Origin: Escherichia phage PHB11
Length of the DNA stretch: 64,000 bases
Sequence record: MK524176.1
Direction: 5' to 3' (one strand)
The notes beneath the pieces are model-generated. The model made no database searches. It worked only from the letters and a program-made list of their open reading frames with translations, and was not told the DNA's origin. Made by a program: the position numbers and the translations under genes. Shown here one piece after another: positions 1,154 through 17,423 of this stretch. How positions within the stretch are numbered: the first letter of the stretch is position 1; each line of letters begins with the position of its first letter.

Positions 1154-1727
1154 AAAAGGTCTAGTTAGAACCTTAGTGGATGTTATTGGTCACAGACTAG
1201 CTCGTGATAAGAATAATAGACCAAACGTAATTAGAGCTTACCCTTCTGATAACTCAAATGACAAAGGTTTAAAACCTGACCAGCCATTTATTACCGTATA
1301 TTGTCAAGATGCTGCAACACCTTATGGTTGGGTTCTTGATAAGTTTGTTGAGGATGATGTAGTTTGCTACAGAATTGCTTTTCAGATTCCAGTATTAATT
1401 ACGGTAAATGGTAAAGGTGCTCACAGTATTATGCTTGAGCTTAAACAACGATTAGAGATGAGTTCAGTCAGAGATTTAATTCTTGAAGAGACAGGAGCTA
1501 CAGTTCTAGATACTGGAGCTATCCCAAATGACTATACTTATCTTAATACAGATTTCGAAAATTCTGCACCTCTTGTTGTAACTCTTGTAAAAAATTCAGT
1601 CCTGAAAGATGAACGTGGAGGTATTATTGAACGTGTCATCGTTGATGGTGAATTAGTTTACGAAGAAGGACAAGAGCCACCAGAATATACTATCCATCTA
1701 GATGTAGACTCCAAAGGGGTAAAATAA
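1128..1727 (+). CDS. Hypothetical virion protein (tail completion candidate)
   Basis: 199 aa ORF immediately upstream of the putative sheath gene. Confidence 0.35.
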   Translation: MQLETAELEKGLVRTLVDVIGHRLARDKNNRPNVIRAYPSDNSNDKGLKPDQPFITVYCQDAATPYGWVLDKFVEDDVVCYRIAFQIPVLITVNGKGAHSIMLELKQRLEMSSVRDLILEETGATVLDTGAIPNDYTYLNTDFENSAPLVVTLVKNSVLKDERGGIIERVIVDGELVYEEGQEPPEYTIHLDVDSKGVK

Positions 1728-3080
1728 ATGTGGAATCCAATTGTTAATGTAGATATTACATTGAACACCGCAGGAACTACAAGAGAAGGTTTTGGGCTAC
1801 CACTATTTTTAGCTTCAACAGATAACTTTGAAGAAAGAGTCCGTGGTTACACTTCCTTAACTGAAGTTGCTGAAGATTTCGATGAAAATTCTGCTGCATA
1901 TAAGGCTGCTAAACAACTTTGGAGTCAGACTCCTAAAGTAACCCAGCTTTATATTGGTAGACGTGCTATGCAGTACACTGTATCAATTCCTGACTCTGTT
2001 AATGAAAGTACCGATTATTCTTTAACTGTAGCTGTGGGCGGTGGAGTTTCTCAACCATTCCAGTACACTTCACAGTCAAAAGATACTGCTGAGAAGGTGT
2101 TACAGCAGCTTAAAACACAGATTGAAGCTGACCCAACAGTTAAAGATAAGGTCACTGTCAATGTAACTGGTGCTGGCGGTTCAGCCACAATGGTAATCAC
2201 CAAAGCTGGTGTGAACGACTTCGTGAAGGTTACTTCTACAGCACAAACAGTGTCAATTGCAAGTACAACTGCTGACACAGCATCTACTGCTTTGGCAGCT
2301 ATTGAAGCTTATTCAACTGACTGGTATTTCATTGCAGCAGAAGACAGAACTCAACAGTTTGTCTTAGCAATGGCTTCTGAGATTCAAGCTCGCAAGAAGA
2401 TTTTCTTTACAGCTAACTCTGATGTAACAGCACTGCAAGGTACAGAATTAGCCAGTGCAAATGATGTTCCAGCACAACTTGCTAAGAATAAATACACTCG
2501 TACAGTTTGCTTGTGGCATCACACAGCAGCAGAAGACTATCCAGAAATGGCATACATTGCTTATGGTGCTCCATATGATGCAGGTTCAATTGCTTGGGGT
2601 AACGCACAGTTAACTGGTGTAGCTGCTTCTCTACAACCATCTAATCATAGACCTCTGACAAGTATTCAGAAGTCAGCTTTAGATGCACGTCACTGTAACT
2701 TTATTGACCTTGATGGTGGTGTTCCAGTGGTTCGTAGAGGGATTACTTCTGGTGGGGAATGGATTGATATCATCCGTGGTGTTGACTGGTTAGAATCAGA
2801 CCTGAAAACTTCTCTGAGAGACTTGCTAATTAATCAGAAGGGTGGTAAGATTACTTATGATGATACTGGTATTACCCGTATTCGTCAAGTCATTGAAACC
2901 TCTCTACAGAGAGCAGTCAACAGAAACTTCCTGTCATCTTACACAGTTAATGTTCCTAAAGCCTCTCAAGTTGCTTTAGCAGACAAGAAAGCTCGTATCC
3001 TGAAAGATGTTACCTTCTCAGGTATCTTAGCAGGGGCTATCTTGGATGTTGACTTGAAAGGTACAGTGGCTTACGAATAA
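1728..3080 (+). CDS. Putative tail sheath protein
   Basis: 450 aa; position directly upstream of a ~150 aa tube candidate, a frameshifted chaperone pair and the tape measure gene (P2/Mu-like contractile tail order). Confidence 0.5.
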   Translation: MWNPIVNVDITLNTAGTTREGFGLPLFLASTDNFEERVRGYTSLTEVAEDFDENSAAYKAAKQLWSQTPKVTQLYIGRRAMQYTVSIPDSVNESTDYSLTVAVGGGVSQPFQYTSQSKDTAEKVLQQLKTQIEADPTVKDKVTVNVTGAGGSATMVITKAGVNDFVKVTSTAQTVSIASTTADTASTALAAIEAYSTDWYFIAAEDRTQQFVLAMASEIQARKKIFFTANSDVTALQGTELASANDVPAQLAKNKYTRTVCLWHHTAAEDYPEMAYIAYGAPYDAGSIAWGNAQLTGVAASLQPSNHRPLTSIQKSALDARHCNFIDLDGGVPVVRRGITSGGEWIDIIRGVDWLESDLKTSLRDLLINQKGGKITYDDTGITRIRQVIETSLQRAVNRNFLSSYTVNVPKASQVALADKKARILKDVTFSGILAGAILDVDLKGTVAYE

Positions 3081-3095
3081 TAGAGGTAAATTGGA

Positions 3096-3542
3096 ATGGC
3101 TATGTATCAGCAATATTCCCCTAAAGACGTTGTATGTAGCTGGAATGGCATTGCTATTGAAGGCTTTGCTCCAGATTCATTCTTGCGTCTACAGAGAACA
3201 TCACCACTTATTACACCAGTTGTAGGTGCGGGTGGTCAGGTTGCTCTGACAAGAAATGCAGACAAGACAGGTACTATTGAGATTGAGCTAATGCAGACTT
3301 CTCTCTCTAATCAGATGCTTTCTGCAATTCAAGCTAAACAAGACAATATGGAACTTGAAGAAGATATCTCTTCTAACTTCGTAATCTACGACCCATCAGG
3401 CTCTGTTCTGGCAACTGGTATTAATGCTTGGTTGCAGGAACTACCGCAGATTGAACTTGGTCGTGACCAGAACTCTAAGACTTGGATTTTTGGTTGTGAG
3501 AAGCTAGACTACACTTCTACAATTCCAGCGTCAAGTGTTTAA
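3096..3542 (+). CDS. Putative tail tube protein
   Basis: 148 aa, between sheath candidate and chaperone pair; followed by an intrinsic terminator. Confidence 0.45.
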   Translation: MAMYQQYSPKDVVCSWNGIAIEGFAPDSFLRLQRTSPLITPVVGAGGQVALTRNADKTGTIEIELMQTSLSNQMLSAIQAKQDNMELEEDISSNFVIYDPSGSVLATGINAWLQELPQIELGRDQNSKTWIFGCEKLDYTSTIPASSV

Positions 3543-3554
3543 TAAATCCTATAA

Positions 3555-3588
3555 GGGGGAGACTTTAAAAGGTCTTCCCCTTTTTTGT
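3555..3588 (+). terminator. Intrinsic terminator after the tube gene
   Basis: GGGGGAGAC-TTTAAAA-GGTCTTCCCC hairpin followed by a T-run. Confidence 0.6.
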
Positions 3589-3615
3589 TTCTTTTAAAAG
3601 TATTAAGGAATCACA

Positions 3616-4014
3616 ATGAAAACAGAAGCTAGAGTAATTAATGGTAAGAAAGTAAATATCATTCTGCTTGGGGCAAGAGATGGTATTAAGATGTCTATGA
3701 AGTTGGGTAAAATTGTTGTTCCAACTTTTGCACAGATGCTATCAAGTCTGACTGATAAAGATAAGAAAGAAGTTCCAATGGTTCCATTTAAAGAACTTGT
3801 TGAGGCTTGTTTTGACAGAATTGAAGAAATTAACCTTGAAGAAATGGCTACCCTGCTATTTCAAGGGGCAACTGTTGATGACTTCCCACTTAATATTGAT
3901 ACATACTTCCAAGCAAACTATGGCGAATTTATTGATTACTTAGCATTTGCGCTGGAGGCAAACTTCGGAAGTTTTTTCGAAGCAAGCATTTTCAAAAGCC
4001 TAACTTCTCAGTAA
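3616..4014 (+). CDS. Tail assembly chaperone (gpG-like, zero-frame product)
   Basis: 132 aa ORF immediately upstream of the tape measure gene; contains slippery heptamer TTTTTTC near its 3' end. Confidence 0.5.
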   Translation: MKTEARVINGKKVNIILLGARDGIKMSMKLGKIVVPTFAQMLSSLTDKDKKEVPMVPFKELVEACFDRIEEINLEEMATLLFQGATVDDFPLNIDTYFQANYGEFIDYLAFALEANFGSFFEASIFKSLTSQ

Positions 4015-4256: not shown

Positions 4257-9619
<5,363 letters not shown>

Positions 9620-9620
<1 letters not shown>

Positions 9621-11089
9621 TGGCAGGACTAACTACAACAGGATTACAAACTCTAAGATATCAGGAGATTTTTGATAATATCAAATCAAGACTTCTTAGA
9701 GATATTTCACCAAACCTTGACGTTTCTGAAGATAGTCAATTAGGACTCTTCCTAGCTTCAATTGCAAGGTCTTTAGCAGATACCCATGAGATTCTATCAG
9801 AAGTCTATGACGGTGGAACAATTGACAAGGCCGAAGGCTTTAACCTTGATGATATTACAGCTTTAAATGCTGTATATAGATATGTTGCTCAGGCAACAAG
9901 AGGTCAGGTAGAGTTTACTGGAACGACTGGTGCTACCATTCCTTCAACAACAAGACTAAGAAGTACTGCCGGAAATATCTTTTATCCAGTTAACAACATT
10001 ACCCTAACCCCATCATATTGTGTTGAAGCTGTCCTTGAAGTTAACTCTTTACGAACTGATGCAGATTATGTTATTATTATTGATAACGTCATTTTCTCAT
10101 ATAAACCAACCTCATCAGACACAATCACCACACTTCTAACAAAATTAGCAGAAGCTATTAATGGTGGTATTGTAGCAAAGGCAGAAGTCATTAATGATGG
10201 AGCATCATTAAGAGTCTATAAAGATGAGGGTGATATCATTGCCAGAACAAACCCTATGGTTGTCACTGCGACAACGTTTCTGACCTTTACAAAAATTACA
10301 ACTATTTCAGATGTAGTAGCTGAAGAGGTGGGTGCTACTCCTGCTTTGGCTGGTACACTTATTGAGATTGAGACAACTGTTGATGGCCTTGACAGTATTT
10401 ATAACAGGTATGACTTAACAACTGGTAGAAACGAAGAAACTGACACAGAACTTAGACAGAGATATTTAGAGTCCTTAGCAGTTACTGGTGTAGGAACTTT
10501 GGATGCAATTGTAGCTGCTGTTAAAAGAGTTCAAGGTGTCTCAGATGCTTCAGGTGTTGAAAATGATACTGAAGAGACAAACTCAGAAGGTCTTCCACCA
10601 AAATCTTTTAAGATTGTTGTAGTTGGTGGTCAAAATGATAATGTAGCTCAGGCAATCTGGGATACAAAGCCTGCTGGTATTAGGGCTTATGGCTCAATTT
10701 TTGGTACAGCCCACGATTTAGGTGGTTTGGCACATAATATTTATTTCAGCAGACCAACACCAAAATACGCATTTGTTAAGGTGTCTTACTCACTATATGA
10801 TGAAGAAAGCTTGACAATCCCTGAAGAGGATATCAGAGACAGTATTGTGCAAGGTATTAATGCCTACGGAAGAACTCTTAAGGTTGGTAATGATGTTATC
10901 CCTAACAGAATCTATGGACATATCTATGACGTAATTAAAGGTATTGAGATTAATGAAGTCAAGGTAGCATTATCAAACAGCCAATCAGTTCCACCTAGTG
11001 ACGGACAATATACTACAGGAAGAATTACTGTTGACGGTGACCAATATACTGTTTGGGAAAGTAGCCAGTATACCATCACTAAGGAGTAA
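9620..11089 (+). CDS. Putative baseplate J-like protein
   Basis: 489 aa ORF in canonical W-J-I order upstream of tail fibres. Confidence 0.45.
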
Positions 11090-11091
11090 TA

Positions 11092-11946
11092 ATGTTTGAA
11101 AAGATTGATAGTGTTTATTACAAAACACTTGATGAACGAACTGTAACACAGTTTAAAGATAAGTTTATCTACACAAGTATCTTGAAAGCAATCACTGATG
11201 AGTTACAAACATTAGAGGATGTTTGCTGGCAGATGCACACAGAGAGAAATATTAGGACGTCAGTAGGCCAACAACTTGATAATATTGGCTCACTGATTAA
11301 AGTTCCTAGACCTCTAGGTGCTGATGATGAAACATATAGAGCTATGCTTTATATCCAAATCTTCCTAAGACGCTCTGACACTACTCCAACATTCTTGCAA
11401 AAAGCAATTATGACACTATATGGTGCAACTTTCTCTCAGATTTTTGAGCATATTACTCCTAAGACTGGTGGTATCGTTATCCGTATTAACACCAGAAAAA
11501 ACGTTCTTGATGCTGCATACACGCTATCAAAGATTTCTGCAACAACAACTGGTTCTGCTGTTATCTTAAGAGATGTTACTTTAAAGGGGACTGCTTGGAC
11601 ACCTGTAGAGGTTGCTGATTCAGCACTTGCTATTGTTGATGATAAAGAGAACTGGTTCGTAACTGATGCTAACAGGGGTCTTGTTACAAATAACACTGGT
11701 GGCTCTCTGGAGTCCAACCTAGTAGGGAGTCTTGCAGATGCTGGTGTTATTGATGGTTACTTTAAGGTTGACAGAACAGCAAACTCACAGAGTGATGATT
11801 ACATGACTGTAGATAGGTCTAATAATAGTGGATATTTCATCGTTGGTAAAGAAGCTGTTGCAGGTGGTGCATACGGAATCATGGCTGAGGTTGCACAAAT
11901 TGTCAAAGGCAGAAAAGATAAATCACAACAAGAAGGAAATTCTTAA
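11092..11946 (+). CDS. Putative baseplate gpI-like protein
   Basis: 284 aa ORF between J-like gene and fibre genes. Confidence 0.4.
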
Positions 11947-12248
11947 TGGCAGTTTTAAATTGGTCTACAAATGAAGTGGATACTGATGGTAATCAGTTAA
12001 AAGTTTTACCACCACCGGAAATTCAAGAGACAGGTCTTTTAAAGGGTGAGCCTATGGGTAGACAGTGGTTCAACTATATTATCAACTACCTGCTGAATAA
12101 AGTAAACGGCACTGTTGGTGAAGTTCGCTCATATGCAACTGAGCAACCAGATTTAGTGGCTAATGGCTGGAATCTAATTAAGTCTGAGACAGGGACTGCA
12201 TCAACAAGCACAAGAAACCTTTACACATATGAATATGTAGGAGCTTAA
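11946..12248 (+). CDS. Hypothetical baseplate/fibre-associated protein
   Basis: 100 aa ORF, translationally coupled to neighbours. Confidence 0.35.
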
Positions 12249-12250
12249 TA

Positions 12251-13426
12251 ATGGCAGTAGGTGAAATTCAAATTAGTGCCTTGCCACAAGCGGCCTTACC
12301 AATTGATTTGAGTGATATCTTCCATCTTAAGCAAGGTGTTGAGGATAAAAGATGTACGCTTGAACAGTTGTTAGCACCTCACACATCTTTGAGGAATAAC
12401 CCTCATGGTGTAACTAAATCGCAAGTTGGTCTTGATAATGTTATTAACTCACTCCAATTGGTCGCAGCTAATAACTTGTCAGACATTGTAGATGTTGCTG
12501 AGGCAAGAGCAAATCTACAGATTATGTCGTCAGATGAAGTGAACAGTTTAATTCAGAGACATATCGACGACAAAAGTAACCCACACAATACAACGAAAGC
12601 ACAGGTAGGGTTAAGTAATGTTCAGAACTGGACAACATCCAACTTATACAATGAAGATGCTGATAAATATGCTACCGCGAGAGCAGTGAATAATCTATAC
12701 AAAGCTATCCAAGCATCATATCCAGTGGGGACTATTCATCTGTCTGTTAACTCTGCTAACCCATCCACTTACTTGCTTTGTGGAGGTACTTGGGAGTTGG
12801 TTTCTAAAGGTAGGGCGCTTGTTGGTTATGATACAGAAGCTAGACCTGTTGGTTCAACGTTCGGTTCTCAGACTGTAGCATTAACAAATAATAATTTACC
12901 AGCACACACCCACTCTATCTATTTAACAGGTGGTGGTCACACACACTCTGCAAGCGTATCTATCTCTAGTTTTGATTATGGTTCAAAAAGTACATCAACT
13001 TTTGATTACGGTACAAAAACGACTAATAGTGCTGGTGCTCACACTCACACGTTTAGCGGCACGACAAGTAATGATGGTAACCATAACCATAGAGTACCAC
13101 TGAGAGGTAATGATAGAAGTGGGGGGGATGCTATTACTGCATCTGCTTATGCTGGGGTTAATAATAATACGTATACTGATTTAGCAGGTGCTCACACCCA
13201 TAGCTTCTCAGGCACAACTGCATCATCTGGTGCTCATAACCATACTGTTGCAATTGGTGCTCATAGCCACACTGTTAATATTGGTTCACACAGTCATACG
13301 GGTGCTGTTACTGTCTCTAGCTCTGAACATACACACTCAGGAACATCTGGTTCTGTTGGTGGTGGTCAAGCTTTCAGTGTTGAGCAGCCATCTTTTGTCG
13401 TATATGTATGGCAGAGAACAGCTTAA
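12251..13426 (+). CDS. Tail fibre protein with His-rich (HxH) C-terminal tip
   Basis: C-terminal repeats AHTHTFSG, AHNHTV, AHSHTVNIGSHSHTG; C-terminus ...VWQRTA; N-terminus related to the next gene. Confidence 0.6.
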   Translation: MAVGEIQISALPQAALPIDLSDIFHLKQGVEDKRCTLEQLLAPHTSLRNNPHGVTKSQVGLDNVINSLQLVAANNLSDIVDVAEARANLQIMSSDEVNSLIQRHIDDKSNPHNTTKAQVGLSNVQNWTTSNLYNEDADKYATARAVNNLYKAIQASYPVGTIHLSVNSANPSTYLLCGGTWELVSKGRALVGYDTEARPVGSTFGSQTVALTNNNLPAHTHSIYLTGGGHTHSASVSISSFDYGSKSTSTFDYGTKTTNSAGAHTHTFSGTTSNDGNHNHRVPLRGNDRSGGDAITASAYAGVNNNTYTDLAGAHTHSFSGTTASSGAHNHTVAIGAHSHTVNIGSHSHTGAVTVSSSEHTHSGTSGSVGGGQAFSVEQPSFVVYVWQRTA

Positions 13427-13430
13427 TTTC

Positions 13431-13459
13431 TTTACAGGGGCTTTGTAGCCCCTTTTAAG
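13431..13459 (+). terminator. Hairpin with T-run between the two fibre genes
   Basis: CTTTACA-GGGGCTTTGTAGCCCC-TTTTAAG; same TTTACA + GGGGCTT...AAGCCCC unit as the early-region cassettes. Confidence 0.4.
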
Positions 13460-13472
13460 AGGAAAATTTATA

Positions 13473-15842
13473 ATGGCAGATTACAAATTGAGTCAATTAA
13501 ACTCAATCGACACAATTCGTTCAGAAGACCTATTGCACATCAGAGTTAAGAAAAGACCTGAAATGTTGGGTGACGAAGACCGTAGAATGACCTATCAAGA
13601 CTTCTTAGCTTCCTTCAAACTAGAAAGGTTTGTTCAGATTGCTGGGAGTACTATGGTTGGGGATTTAGGTATTGTCAAGTTACTTTACGGTGGCAAGGCT
13701 GTATTTGACCCAACAGATTCTTCTGAGATTACTATTGGGGATGTTTTAAAGACTTTTAAAATTAACGCAAATGGTCTTAAACTAACTATTGCAGATGCTT
13801 CAAGGTCGGCAACTGTTTATCATACTTTGAATAAGCCAAGCCCTAATGAGCTTGGGATGAGAACTAATGAAGAGAATGATGCAAGATATGCAAGGCTTGC
13901 TGTCACAAATAACTTCAGCATTAGGCAAGCAATCATAACTGATGGTGAGCAGTTAACTCTTAAGAAGGCAACCAATGCAGGTGCTTCATATATTCAAGGT
14001 AGAGATACTAATAACCAGCAAACTTGGTATGTTGGACAGGGAAATGCAAACAGCACTAATGTTTATTTGTACAATCATGCTACTGGTGCAATGTTAACCC
14101 TTGATGCAACAGCAGCATTTAATAAGTCACTTAGAATCACTGGACAAGTTCAACCTTCGGATTTCTCTAACTTAGATGCTAGATACTTCACTCAGACAGT
14201 TGCTAATCAGAGATTTGCACAGTTAGCTGGTAATAACACTTTTACAGGTGCTAATACATTTAATAACTATATCAGTGTGAACTCTAATGCTGCTGCTATC
14301 GTGCTAAAAAATAAGTCTGCTAATGAGTCTTTGTACATCCTAGCAAAAGATGTTGAAAACAATAATCTGTGGTTTATTGGTAAAGGTAGTGCAAATGACA
14401 ATATCACATTTTATGATTACAAGGGCAATACTTCTATTGTATTAAACTCGTCTGGTGCTGCATTCAGCAAGACTGTAAAAATCACTGGTCAAGTCCAACC
14501 TTCAGATTGGGCTAACATTGACTCTAGATATATTCCGGCAGATATTTTAAGCAATCTTGCTAAAATTAATGTAACTAACACATTTACCTCCCAGCAAATT
14601 ATCCAAGCAAATGGTGAAGCTATTAGGCTAAAAAACTCTTCTGAGAACTCACCATTGTATATCAGAGCACAGGACAACACTGGTGCTTATAGGTGGTATG
14701 TAGGTAATGGCTCGGGGAGTGATGATGTCACCATCCGCAATCACAAGACAGATTGTGAGGTTATCCTATCTAGTGTCGTTGCTATTAATAAAACATTAAG
14801 CATCACTGGTCAAGTTAAACCCTCAGATTTCTCTAACTTAGATGCTAGATATTACACGCAATCTACCGCAAACTCTAGGTATATGCTTGCTTACTCTTCT
14901 GGCAGTGGTACAGAGGTGGGTGAGAGTGATGGTATTGTTTGGAATGCTAAAACTGGTCTGTATAATGTGTATAATAAATCTGGTGGCTCAACACAGCTAG
15001 TCTACCATATGTATCAGGGTACAAGTTCTACACCATCTGCACAGTTTAAGTTTATCTACAGGAATGGTGGTATTTTTTACAGGACAGCACGAGATGGGTA
15101 TGGTTTTGAGCAGGCATGGGCTAAAATCTATACAGACCAAGATAAACCAACCCCTTCAGAGATTGGTGCGTACACTAAAGCTGAAACTGACCAGAAGATT
15201 GCAGAAGCGATTAGTGACTCTACAGACCTGAATAAAATCTATCCAGTAGGTATTGTGACGTGGTTTAACAGTAATGTTAACCCTAATACAGCACTTCCTG
15301 GGTTAACTTGGACGTACCTGAACAATGGTGTTGGTAGAACTATTAGAATTGCAGCAGCAAACGGTTCAGATGTTGCTACAACTGGTGGTTCAGATTCTGT
15401 AACACTATCTGTTGGTAACTTACCTTCACACACGCATAGTTTCTCTGCTACCACTTCATCATTTGATTATGGTACTAAGACGACAAATACGACTGGCAAC
15501 CATGCTCATGATAGAGGTAACATGGAAATTTCTGGTGTGTTTGGTTGGTTCAGAAGTGATAACGGTGCATTCTACACTGCTAGTGGTGCATTTGTGATGG
15601 GTGGTAGTCAGGCTTCGCATGGCTTCACAGGCTCTAACTTCACTTATGGTGCGCCTGTTGATTTCCACGCGTCAAGAACTTGGACAGGTGTAACCAACAC
15701 GACTGGTAACCACGCCCACAGTGTAGGTATTGGCGCTCACAGCCACACAGTTAGTGGTAACACAGGTGGTACTGGTTCTGGTTCAGCATTTAGTGTTACT
15801 AACCAGTTCTATAAGCTAATGGCTTGGGTAAGGACTGCTTAA
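13473..15842 (+). CDS. Tail fibre protein (long), paralogous to 12251..13426
   Basis: 789 aa; three internal repeats (...ITGQVQPSDFSNLDARY.../...ITGQVQPSDWANIDSRY.../...ITGQVKPSDFSNLDARY...); HxH motifs near C-terminus; ends ...AWVRTA. Confidence 0.6.
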   Translation: MADYKLSQLNSIDTIRSEDLLHIRVKKRPEMLGDEDRRMTYQDFLASFKLERFVQIAGSTMVGDLGIVKLLYGGKAVFDPTDSSEITIGDVLKTFKINANGLKLTIADASRSATVYHTLNKPSPNELGMRTNEENDARYARLAVTNNFSIRQAIITDGEQLTLKKATNAGASYIQGRDTNNQQTWYVGQGNANSTNVYLYNHATGAMLTLDATAAFNKSLRITGQVQPSDFSNLDARYFTQTVANQRFAQLAGNNTFTGANTFNNYISVNSNAAAIVLKNKSANESLYILAKDVENNNLWFIGKGSANDNITFYDYKGNTSIVLNSSGAAFSKTVKITGQVQPSDWANIDSRYIPADILSNLAKINVTNTFTSQQIIQANGEAIRLKNSSENSPLYIRAQDNTGAYRWYVGNGSGSDDVTIRNHKTDCEVILSSVVAINKTLSITGQVKPSDFSNLDARYYTQSTANSRYMLAYSSGSGTEVGESDGIVWNAKTGLYNVYNKSGGSTQLVYHMYQGTSSTPSAQFKFIYRNGGIFYRTARDGYGFEQAWAKIYTDQDKPTPSEIGAYTKAETDQKIAEAISDSTDLNKIYPVGIVTWFNSNVNPNTALPGLTWTYLNNGVGRTIRIAAANGSDVATTGGSDSVTLSVGNLPSHTHSFSATTSSFDYGTKTTNTTGNHAHDRGNMEISGVFGWFRSDNGAFYTASGAFVMGGSQASHGFTGSNFTYGAPVDFHASRTWTGVTNTTGNHAHSVGIGAHSHTVSGNTGGTGSGSAFSVTNQFYKLMAWVRTA

Positions 15843-15921
15843 TCCCTTGTTGACTGATTGTTAAGATGGTGTTAATATTCTTTATGGGTATTCTCACCAT
15901 CTTGGCTGATGAGGTGATTAA

Positions 15922-16119
15922 ATGCCTACAATCCTAGCAATTCTTCTAAAAAATCTAGGTAGCTTCTTCTGGAAACTCATTTTATCCCTTCTAAGTGAAT
16001 ACATGATTGAGAAAGTGTTCTTTAGGCTTGCAAGATACCTTGCGAGTAAAACAGACACACCTATTGATGATGAGTTCGTAGATAACTTAGAAAAAGCTTT
16101 TAAGGGGGAGAATAAATGA
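15922..16119 (+). CDS. Small membrane protein (unknown; holin-like topology not established)
   Basis: 65 aa with hydrophobic N-terminal segment ILAILLKNLGSFFWKLILSLL. Confidence 0.35.
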   Translation: MPTILAILLKNLGSFFWKLILSLLSEYMIEKVFFRLARYLASKTDTPIDDEFVDNLEKAFKGENK

Positions 16120-16487
16120 AGTGGCTAGAGGAAGCTTTTAAAAATAATATTGGTGCAATTGTAGTTGGTATTTTTAGTGTTATTGGGATGTACACCACCA
16201 TGCAAGTTTCGGATGGTAAACAAGAAGTGTCTATCACAACAAAGTTACAGCAGTTAGATAATTATTCCAAAAGTAATTATTCAGCTATTCGTGATTTACA
16301 GTCTGATATGAGGCTGCTTCAGCTAGGGATGGAGAACCAGAAAGTCCAGTTAGAGAATGTTAAGGGTGAGAACGCAAAACTTACTAAGACTCTTGATAAA
16401 TTCTCTGATAGTGTAAACAATCTGGCTCAATCAGTATCAGCCCTCCAAGCTATTACTGAAAAGAACACAAAGAATACTGAAAAGTAA
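16116..16487 (+). CDS. Membrane-anchored coiled-coil protein (unknown)
   Basis: N-terminal hydrophobic helix IGAIVVGIFSVIGMY followed by heptad-rich region. Confidence 0.35.
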   Translation: MKWLEEAFKNNIGAIVVGIFSVIGMYTTMQVSDGKQEVSITTKLQQLDNYSKSNYSAIRDLQSDMRLLQLGMENQKVQLENVKGENAKLTKTLDKFSDSVNNLAQSVSALQAITEKNTKNTEK

Positions 16488-16493
16488 AGTTTA

Positions 16494-16521
16494 AGGCTCC
16501 TTTTTACGGGAGCCTTTTTTG
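16494..16521. terminator. Intrinsic terminator at the convergent junction of the + late operon and the - strand block
   Basis: AGGCTCC-N8-GGAGCCT hairpin followed by TTTTTT on the + strand. Confidence 0.6.
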
Positions 16522-16523
16522 TT

Positions 16524-17423
16524 TTATTTACCTACTGACAAAGGTGCTTCAATCTTTCCTGCATGTTGATAGTTGCTAATACCACCAATAAAGTCACTTG
16601 CAGTGAGATGTTTTAAGTCACTTAAAGTGTTAAGTGGGATACCAATCTCAAAAGTTGGTGCATGGAACTCTTCATTGTTCATTAGTTCATAAACCTGCTT
16701 CATGTGGTTCTGATAAATCTGAGTATCTCCAAAGACACCTATCAAATATCGTGGAGTGTATCCAGTCATCTTACAAAGAACTTCCAGAATAAAACCATAA
16801 GATGCAATGTTAAACGGAAGTCCTAAAAAGGTGTCTACAGAACGCTGATACCATTGTAAGTCAACTTCACCCTCGTTAGTGATATAAATCTGAAACAGAA
16901 CATGACAAGGTGCTAGAGCCATTGAGTTTGCTGCAATATCTGCTGCATTCCAAGCATTAACAAGCATGTAACGGTCTGTGATATCACCCTTCATCTTCGT
17001 TACTAAGGTCTCTAACTGGTCTACAACACAACCATTATGACCTTCAAAGTTTCTCCACTGAACTCCATAGATTCTTCCACCTGCATCTTCTAACCAATCT
17101 TGTTCAGAAGAATAATTAGAGCTTAACCAACGTTTAAAATCATCTGACCAGATAGTCCAACGTTCTCCGTCATTTTCACCCCAAGTGCGGTAACGGAGTT
17201 CACCAAGCTTATTCTCACCATTCAGGAACCATAAAGCTTCTCCGATAACTTGCCGTGTAAACACCTGTTTAGATGTTAAGAGTGGGAAACCAGTTCGCAT
17301 ATCAAAACGAAACTGAGGTGGAGCAAATGCAGAGATAACATCTCCAGTTCGTGTGGTACGCAGTTCACCAACTGATAAAACATGGTTCAGGATATTTTTG
17401 TAACTCAAATCTGCTTGTGACAT
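16524..17423 (-). CDS. thyA: Thymidylate synthase
   Basis: ThyA-type active site MALAPCHVLFQIY and LGLPFNIAS (Asn retained, as in dUMP-specific enzymes); DHFR gene adjacent. Confidence 0.85.
   Translation of the reverse strand: MSQADLSYKNILNHVLSVGELRTTRTGDVISAFAPPQFRFDMRTGFPLLTSKQVFTRQVIGEALWFLNGENKLGELRYRTWGENDGERWTIWSDDFKRWLSSNYSSEQDWLEDAGGRIYGVQWRNFEGHNGCVVDQLETLVTKMKGDITDRYMLVNAWNAADIAANSMALAPCHVLFQIYITNEGEVDLQWYQRSVDTFLGLPFNIASYGFILEVLCKMTGYTPRYLIGVFGDTQIYQNHMKQVYELMNNEEFHAPTFEIGIPLNTLSDLKHLTASDFIGGISNYQHAGKIEAPLSVGK

Follow-up and report, generated by a model that had tools for sequence, protein, structure and literature searches.

Predicted architecture of the short and long tail fibres of Escherichia phage PHB11, a Felix O1-like pair with T4 gp37-type tips

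Two adjacent tail fibre genes lie in a 64,000-nucleotide (nt) stretch of Escherichia phage PHB11 (MK524176.1), the whole of which is called the window here. Their closest described counterparts are gp26 and gp27 of Bas63 (Escherichia phage JohannRWettstein), a phage of the same genus with the same gene order, studied by cryo-electron microscopy (cryo-EM; Sci Adv 2025, PMC12609058). In Bas63, gp23-gp27 are wedge 2, wedge 1, the long-fibre platform, the short fibre and the long fibre, and the two fibres attach at two different baseplate sites (PMC12609058). The published work covers the baseplate-binding domain, reported to be structurally conserved without sequence similarity, the repeat domains, and a tip of collar, needle and head with His-x-His (HxH) motifs (PMC12609058). 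According to the same paper, the HxH motifs of phage T4 gp37 bind Fe, and the chain of gp37 reverses direction in the head to run back into the collar. T4 gp37 needs the chaperones gp38 and gp57A (PMC3004832).

A pair with the same fibre sizes is found in a different genus of the Ounavirinae, in the Mooglevirus Sf14 (gp52, 391 amino acids, aa; gp53, 792 aa; Commun Biol 2025, PMC11821841). In Sf14 both fibres are retracted along the sheath, and a gp10_C-like domain and a gp37-like tip were noted; the authors named both proteins long tail fibres and placed a C24-like domain 'in the centre' of gp52 (PMC11821841). By their account these are single-protein fibres without a Mu-type chaperone (PMC11821841). 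Likeness to T4 gp37 had been noted for the fibres of Felix O1 in 2010 (PMC3185647) and of VpaE1 in 2015 (PMC4690856). A two-fibre design, HxH tips of the gp37-like kind and a shaft with repeats are thus already known for Felixounaviruses, from sequence in 2010 and 2015 and from cryo-EM in 2025, and the value of the present comparison lies chiefly in annotation and little in discovery.

Window positions 1-25000 showed 94-96% nt identity to the Felixounaviruses H12, D4, Shy and EC6. The fibre region was 95% identical to that of Escherichia phage EC6, and 235 phage records matched it. By nucleotide comparison, the window comes from the genome of a Felixounavirus, a myophage of the Felix O1 kind. 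Gene order and protein sizes (489, 284, 100, 391 and 789 aa) reproduced the Bas63 gp23-gp27 arrangement, with the wedge 2, wedge 1 and platform genes immediately preceding the fibre pair. The short fibre (391 aa) is encoded at 12251..13426 (+ strand) and the long fibre (789 aa) at 13473..15842 (+). A preliminary description of this DNA, made from the letters alone, had given exactly these open reading frames (ORFs) and had called both products tail fibres, in agreement with orthology and with the PHROGs database, where each ORF matched a 'tail fiber protein' family over its full length (phrog_2097, E 5.5e-138, for the short fibre; phrog_4277, E 0, for the long fibre). The records of EC6, Shy and other phages label the short fibre gene tail fiber. 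The nearest cluster representatives were 94% (short fibre, P0001) and 86% (long fibre, P0121) identical. Going by sequence orthology, the short fibre gene is the equivalent of Bas63 gp26, Sf14 gp52, Felix O1 gp76 and VpaE1 gp74, and the long fibre gene that of Bas63 gp27, Sf14 gp53, Felix O1 gp77 and VpaE1 gp75. We consider it very probable that the pair represents the short and long baseplate fibres of a Felixounavirus, with gp37-type tips, an HxH metal needle, receptor contact by the head, and swapping of modules.

The C-terminal parts of both fibres are homologous to the receptor-binding tip of T4 gp37. The short fibre matched the gp37 tip structure (PDB 2XGF) at aa 146-362 (E 7.5e-27), and the long fibre matched it at aa 647-768 (E 9.5e-5). 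The two tips also matched each other, by BLASTP (E 1e-11, 33% identity) and by profile-profile comparison through the last residue (probability 99.8%, E 1.6e-28), so the relatedness of the two C-termini, which the preliminary description had claimed, held up in alignment. Likeness to gp37 extends to the order of collar, needle and head, to HxH motifs in register on both hairpin legs, and to a C-terminal R-x-A. In T4, gp37 is the distal segment (1026 aa) of a four-protein long fibre, whereas the PHB11 tips are borne by single-protein fibres.

The HxH motifs were placed in a three-way alignment of both fibres with T4 gp37 residues 785-1026 from NC_000866. The short fibre contains 24 His, 18 of them in nine HxH motifs (219, 230, 264, 278, 315, 329, 338, 347 and 360). 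It keeps all seven T4 motifs (883, 915 and 929 on one leg; 966, 980, 989 and 998 on the other) and has two more, one per leg. The long fibre, with four motifs (653, 677, 747 and 756), keeps four of the seven, those matching 929, 966 and 998 having been lost; its segment between the two HxH sets is 67 aa long against ~34 in T4, giving a predicted head about twice as long. Among 118 long-fibre homologues, 80 belonged to a 4-HxH class and 38 to a 6-HxH class, and the PHB11 long fibre falls in the 4-HxH, large-head class. For the Bas63 needles, seven (short) and six (long) motifs were reported, whereas whole-sequence counts in PHB11 gave nine and four. The motif strings quoted in the preliminary description were all present: AHTHTFSG at short-fibre aa 263-270, AHSHTV at aa 337-342 of the short and 755-760 of the long fibre, and GNHAHSVGIGAHSHTV at long-fibre aa 745-760.

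The tips are rich in Ser, Thr and Gly (13-16% each) and contain 7-9% His, and an out-of-frame ORF at 13188..13448 stems from repetitive codons; on such grounds the HxH clusters could be taken for compositional noise in a Ser/Thr/Gly/His-rich low-complexity tail, with no structural role. This reading is contradicted on three sides, and we give it practically no credence. Composition-preserving shuffles contained on average 1.4 (short) and 0.27 (long) HxH motifs, and the observed counts were reached in none of 20,000. Among 36 diverse short-fibre homologues, down to 40% identity, H230, H232, H315, H317, H347 and H349 were invariant while neighbouring residues varied, as were all eight HxH histidines of the long fibre in 28 long-fibre homologues. 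The motifs also align one to one with those of T4 gp37, whose structure is solved. Homology to 2XGF places the HxH clusters in a fibre-tip fold known to coordinate metal, consistent with the metal-coordinating tips that had been suggested. Scarcely more credible is a reading of the 391-aa protein as a gp10-like structural component of the baseplate that is no receptor-binding fibre. It could draw on Pfam, where Gp10_C (PF21939; aa 154-390, 68.9 bits, E 1.1e-18, gathering threshold 27 bits) was the sole match above threshold, on matches of aa 143-240 to T4 gp10 in the PDB (E 5e-6 to 6e-5), and on Foldseek, where the short-fibre model had no match with E <0.001 and its weak top matches were gp10 homologues (E 0.07-0.24). 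The match to the gp37 tip was far stronger and spans the HxH needle, which gp10 does not have, and the orthologue is a 430-Angstrom fibre in the cryo-EM of Bas63 and Sf14 (PMC12609058, PMC11821841).

The collar fold itself is common to gp10, gp11, gp12 and gp37. In the short fibre, the N-terminal half of the predicted collar (aa 146-218, 12686..12904, +; YPVGTI...) was supported by Gp10_C, by BLASTP with T4 gp10 (E 3e-10), by the 2XGF alignment and by an AlphaFold2 (AF2) model (predicted local distance difference test, pLDDT, 79-87). It would be followed by descending needle strands (aa 219-280, 12905..13090, +), whose motifs at 219, 230, 264 and 278 align with T4 883, 915 and 929 plus an extra one in an insertion. 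A predicted distal head, or turn, comes next (aa 281-314, 13091..13192, +); it is the most variable segment and aligns with the gp37 head region. The predicted ascending strands (aa 315-362, 13193..13336, +) carry motifs 315, 329, 338, 347 and 360, aligned with T4 966, 980, 989 and 998 plus one extra, and the chain probably returns to the collar at aa 363-391 (13337..13423, +). This last part ends in ...VYVWQRTA, with Y385, W387 and R389 invariant, and was aligned by HHalign with the long fibre to the last residue. The long fibre has the corresponding parts: a predicted collar half (aa 585-652, 15225..15428, +; YPVGIV...; HHalign with the short-fibre tip 99.8%, conservation 0.98-1.0), a descending needle with HxH 653 and 677 (aa 653-679, 15429..15509, +), an enlarged predicted head with the variable tip segment (aa 680-746, 15510..15710, +), and an ascending needle with HxH 747 and 756 plus collar return (aa 747-789, 15711..15839, +), ending in ...MAWVRTA.

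Because a gp37-type chain folds back, the head is expected in the middle of the sequence, and the map of variability lends this support. Across 71 short-fibre homologues, identity to the query was 0.11-0.31 at aa 281-320 and 0.5-0.8 elsewhere. Among the 118 long-fibre homologues, conservation was 0.56-0.61 at aa 681-740 and 0.98-1.0 in the flanking collar. In both fibres the minimum falls exactly between the descending and the ascending HxH sets, while the last 30 residues are conserved at 0.8-1.0. The receptor-contacting head is thus presumably formed by aa 281-314 of the short and aa 680-746 of the long fibre, where receptor-contacting residues should be sought, away from the C-terminus. The preliminary description had let both proteins end in the tip; the C-terminus corresponds instead to the collar. 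Its conserved W(Q/V)RTA ending was correctly read, as WQRTA in the short and WVRTA in the long fibre, the latter in 117 of the 118 homologues. By alignment, the collar domain would have W.RTA as its final strand. T4 gp10, gp11 and gp37 end in ...YRWIRIA, ...YHFERTA and ...YIVRLA, and since this collar ending is shared by gp10 and gp11, which have no HxH, it is not a signature of a metal site.

By orthology to the Bas63 fibres, each PHB11 fibre would form an N-terminally anchored homotrimer, the short fibre attached to the wedge-2 protein and the long fibre to the small platform protein encoded just upstream. By homology, the long-fibre shaft consists of three tandem beta-rich repeat domains and then a Mu S-like domain. 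In the tip, each chain would leave the collar, descend as one of the three descending strands of a six-stranded needle, turn in the distal head and climb back to the collar. With each HxH contributed by all three chains, six histidines would then surround a divalent metal octahedrally on the axis of the needle, as modelled on the Fe sites of T4 gp37; T4 gp12 uses Zn at its single HxH. Nine such stacked sites are predicted for the short fibre and four for the long fibre, whose needle would be shorter and whose head would be roughly double that of T4 in size. By analogy with T4 and Bas63, the metals would staple the interdigitated needle, a structural role and not one in receptor binding. Receptor contact would fall to the head, the likely receptor class for the genus being lipopolysaccharide (LPS) core or O-antigen, and host range changes as related phages exchange modules that are bounded by domain limits. 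LPS, and not protein receptors, is what the genus depends on (PMC8594841; VpaE1, PMC4690856).

Several points weigh against this architecture. Trimerisation, metal binding and the identity of the metal are carried over to the PHB11 fibres from their relatives, and the literature does not settle the receptor of each fibre in the genus (PMC8594841). The mean pLDDT of the AF2 monomer models was 59.7 (short) and 48.4 (long). Support for the fold-back topology hence comes from the sequence match to 2XGF and from the map of variability rather than from a confident model, and the Foldseek result for the short-fibre model gave the fold-back needle no confirmation. Only the collar of the short fibre and, in the long fibre, the three repeat cores and the Mu S-like domain reached pLDDT 70-89. 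In the long fibre, Gp10_C at aa 587-689 scored 26.9 bits, 0.1 below the curated cut-off of 27; many long-fibre homologues carry a precomputed PF21939 call. Finally, a homologue of the T4 chaperone gp38 was not found in the 64-kb window (tblastn best E 0.78), which leaves the folding route of the needle unexplained. The T4 assembly system of long fibres (gp37, gp38 and gp57A) was considered as a model for the locus and set aside, as no gp38-type gene was recognised beside the PHB11 fibres in a comparison that covered gp38 and the 64 kb of the window.

The long fibre begins with a putative baseplate-binding region (aa 1-135, 13473..13877, +) that is near-invariant in the genus (conservation 0.89-0.99). 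Three tandem repeat domains follow (aa 136-234, 235-349 and 350-456; together 13878..14840, +). The preliminary description had recognised three internal repeats of ~100 aa, and they were borne out: the repeats (99-115 aa) are 38-43% identical in pairs, with Smith-Waterman z values of 20-32 against shuffles, and Pfam PF20744 gp37_trimer matched in three stretches (215.1 bits, cut-off 21.7, E 9.5e-65). Self-BLASTP of each fibre returned the identity match alone and no internal repeat. The linkers (TGQVxPSD..DxRY) are conserved and coincide with a 76-nt DNA repeat, and the cores are variable. The cores matched T7 gp17 (4A0T/4A0U) by phmmer (E about 4e-5), and in Foldseek they matched T4 gp34 (4UXE/5NXH/4UXG, ~4e-5) and T7 gp17 (4A0U, 1e-3; for one chain, root-mean-square deviation 1.6 Angstrom over 64 columns). 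Homology in sequence and model thus identifies the repeats as probable beta-rich domains of the T4 gp34 / T7 gp17-pyramid type, and the gp34 matches agree with the gp34-like repeat domains described for Bas63 (PMC12609058). Copy number and carrier protein differ between PHB11 and T4 gp34, T7 gp17 and other PF20744 proteins. BLASTP of both fibres against T4 gp34, gp36, gp12 and gp9 gave nothing significant, nor did the repeats against gp37. As in PHB11, the repeat domains of the Bas63 long fibre are beta-rich and parted by helix-turn linkers (PMC12609058); five beta-helix domains were counted there from the structure, whereas three repeats are detectable by sequence in PHB11.

Between repeats and tip, the long fibre carries a domain in common with phage Mu/P2-type tail fibres (aa 473-584, 14889..15224, +). 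It was recognised by Pfam PF12604 gp37_C (aa 475-584, 79.6 bits, cut-off 22.5, E 1.9e-22) and by matches of aa 473-577 to residues 324-427 of the Mu tail fibre S (8JU3; phmmer E 1.6e-25, Foldseek E 5.6e-7). Mu S ends soon after this domain and needs the chaperone U/U', whereas in PHB11 the domain is internal and followed by the gp37-type tip.

The short-fibre shaft contains two copies of NPHxxTKxQVGLxNV (aa 50-64 and 110-124; nt 12398..12442 and 12578..12622, + strand, spanning 12398..12622), found by regular-expression match and helical in the AF2 model. Their probable counterparts are the 'triple alpha helix and turn' linkers. KPxPxExG linkers, similar in kind, flank domains of the long fibre (aa 121-128 and 558-565). 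N-terminal to the shaft lies a motif at aa 1-45 (12251..12385, +), with M1, Q7, I8, L11, A14, P17 and G29 invariant, that is likely the baseplate-binding element.

Related N-termini had been proposed for the two fibres, and what stood of this was a borderline shared motif of ~40 aa. BLASTP of the N-termini gave E 1.2, and HHalign of the family alignments gave a probability of 12% over 29 columns. With a more diverse alignment, HHalign aligned short-fibre aa 6-45 with long-fibre aa 4-49 (probability 53%, E 1.4e-4; reversed control E 0.61). A word-indexed homologue search with long-fibre aa 1-135 returned seven near-identical fragments only. Exhaustive phmmer with the same segment against 1.84 billion representatives found 22 proteins, a few of them fragments and the rest long fibres of 700-1350 aa; a short-fibre-like protein was not among these 22. 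AF2 confidence was low at the N-termini of both fibres.

The two fibres had been called paralogous along with a proposal that their duplication served receptor-range diversification. By alignment, demonstrable paralogy is confined to the C-terminal ~200 aa (33-37% identity), and the shafts differ. The idea that one fibre gene was recently duplicated in tandem, leaving copies that are homologous over their length and are kept for different receptors, nevertheless has points in its favour: the genes stand side by side on one strand, their tips are homologous, the N-terminal motif may be common to both, and the Sf14 authors suggest that the two fibres may bind different receptors (PMC11821841). 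We think it improbable. Outside the tip and the ~40-aa motif the proteins share no similarity, their shafts being unrelated; repeats between the two genes at the DNA level do not exceed ~27 nt; a short/long pair of the same sizes is conserved across Ounavirinae genera; and the fibres sit on different baseplate proteins (PMC12609058). Because similarity is limited to the tip, long DNA repeats are missing, and Mooglevirus Sf14 has the same 391/792-aa pair, the PHB11 genes are an old, fixed two-fibre architecture with a common tip module and no recent duplication.

Diversification was seen instead as horizontal exchange of modules between phages, and not as a consequence of the duplication itself. 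The short fibre gene was closest to that of Shy (99-100% identity in most bins, 92-97% in two). Long-fibre repeats 2-3 (about 14200-15100) were 97-100% identical to EC6 and 48-85% to Shy and ZX4221, and the long-fibre tip (15250-15842) was 98-100% identical to ZX4221 and 86-92% to EC6. The breakpoints lie at domain boundaries, at the start of repeat 2 (nt 14175) and at the start of the collar (nt 15225), and these boundaries are natural junctions for host-range engineering in Felix O1-type biocontrol phages. The head segment of the long fibre was 100% identical in ZX4221 and ~45% identical in Salmonella Felixounaviruses among the matches listed. The tip segment, long-fibre aa 660-770, occurred at 60% identity or more in 58 phage records, all E. 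coli or Shigella phages among the matches listed, and was ~45% identical in the Salmonella Felixounaviruses listed. The shaft of ZX4221 was 48-81% identical despite the full identity of the tip. Such a pattern, together with the separate 6-HxH class among the homologues, would fit a tip that forms a distinct short-needle class (four predicted metal sites, ~67-aa head), moves as a cassette among E. coli/Shigella Ounavirinae independently of the shaft, and sets E. coli/Shigella versus Salmonella LPS specificity. We put this forward tentatively, as the less probable side of the question; if true, it would refine published work and add no new kind of system.

Two observations concern the long fibre gene in related phages. 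In the RefSeq record of EC6 (NC_027369) it is annotated as two overlapping coding sequences, 'tail fiber protein' and 'tail protein' (1623..3248 and 3214..3993 of the compared stretch). Set against the intact 789-aa ORF in the 95%-identical window, the split likely reflects a frameshift or a sequencing error in the reference record. Some Felixounaviruses have long fibres of 849 aa, 60 aa longer (ZX4221, OR498728, 1623..4172 of the compared stretch; P0210; P0239). All HxH positions in them are shifted by +60, so the extra length lies upstream of the tip. This contrasts in part with the Bas63 paper, in which long-fibre divergence is not ascribed to large indels (PMC12609058).

The out-of-frame ORF at 13188..13448 (+, 86 aa), Leu/Val/Ile-rich, falls where the short fibre gene encodes its His-rich stretch; a by-product of repetitive CAC/ACT codons, it is no gene. 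Between the two fibre genes, a stem-loop at 13436..13453 (+) has a 7-bp GC-rich stem (GGGGCU-UUGU-AGCCCC plus an A-U pair), followed by TTTT and the ribosome-binding site AAGAGGA. Its RNA fold had -16.3 kcal/mol (z -3.3), none of 200 shuffles was equally stable, and EC6, ZX4221 and Shy all have this stretch at 100% identity. It may act as a leaky terminator, or as an RNA stabiliser, that sets the short:long fibre expression ratio. A promoter and terminator scan of 11800-16600 showed no enrichment over shuffles.

Upstream of the fibres, the wedge 2 protein (489 aa, 9620..11089) matched 'Wedge protein 2 (gp023)' of the Bas63 baseplate (PDB 9NDY, 9NDY_H) over its full length, near-identically (1013 bits). 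The 100-aa protein encoded directly 5' of the short fibre gene (11946..12248, +) matched phrog_4141, of unknown function, over its full length (E 7.8e-61), and by gene order is the putative equivalent of Bas63 gp25, the long-fibre platform. BLASTP of this candidate against T4 gp9 gave nothing significant. Neither the two fibres nor the platform or spike had an NCBIfam match. A 207-aa protein (8578..9201, +), encoded two genes 5' of wedge 2, has the residues HTH at aa 188-190, near its C-terminus. In the central puncturing apparatus of Bas63, a di-histidine, H188/H190, was proposed to bind iron (PMC12609058). The residue numbers agree, which would make this a third predicted HxH metal site in the tail module.

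ARAGORN found no tRNA gene within the window. For Felix O1, 22 encoded tRNAs have been reported (PMC3185647), and the corresponding cluster must be located beyond the window, elsewhere in the genome. Downstream of the long fibre gene, two small ORFs encode a hydrophobic 65-aa protein (15922..16119, +) and a 123-aa protein that combines a hydrophobic stretch at its N-terminus with a long polar tail (16116..16487, +). They matched solely PHROGs of unknown function (phrog_402 and phrog_4038), and may serve in lysis or in the membrane, or represent a fibre chaperone that has escaped recognition. A strong terminator-like hairpin (16493..16516) stands at the junction with a convergent minus-strand block.

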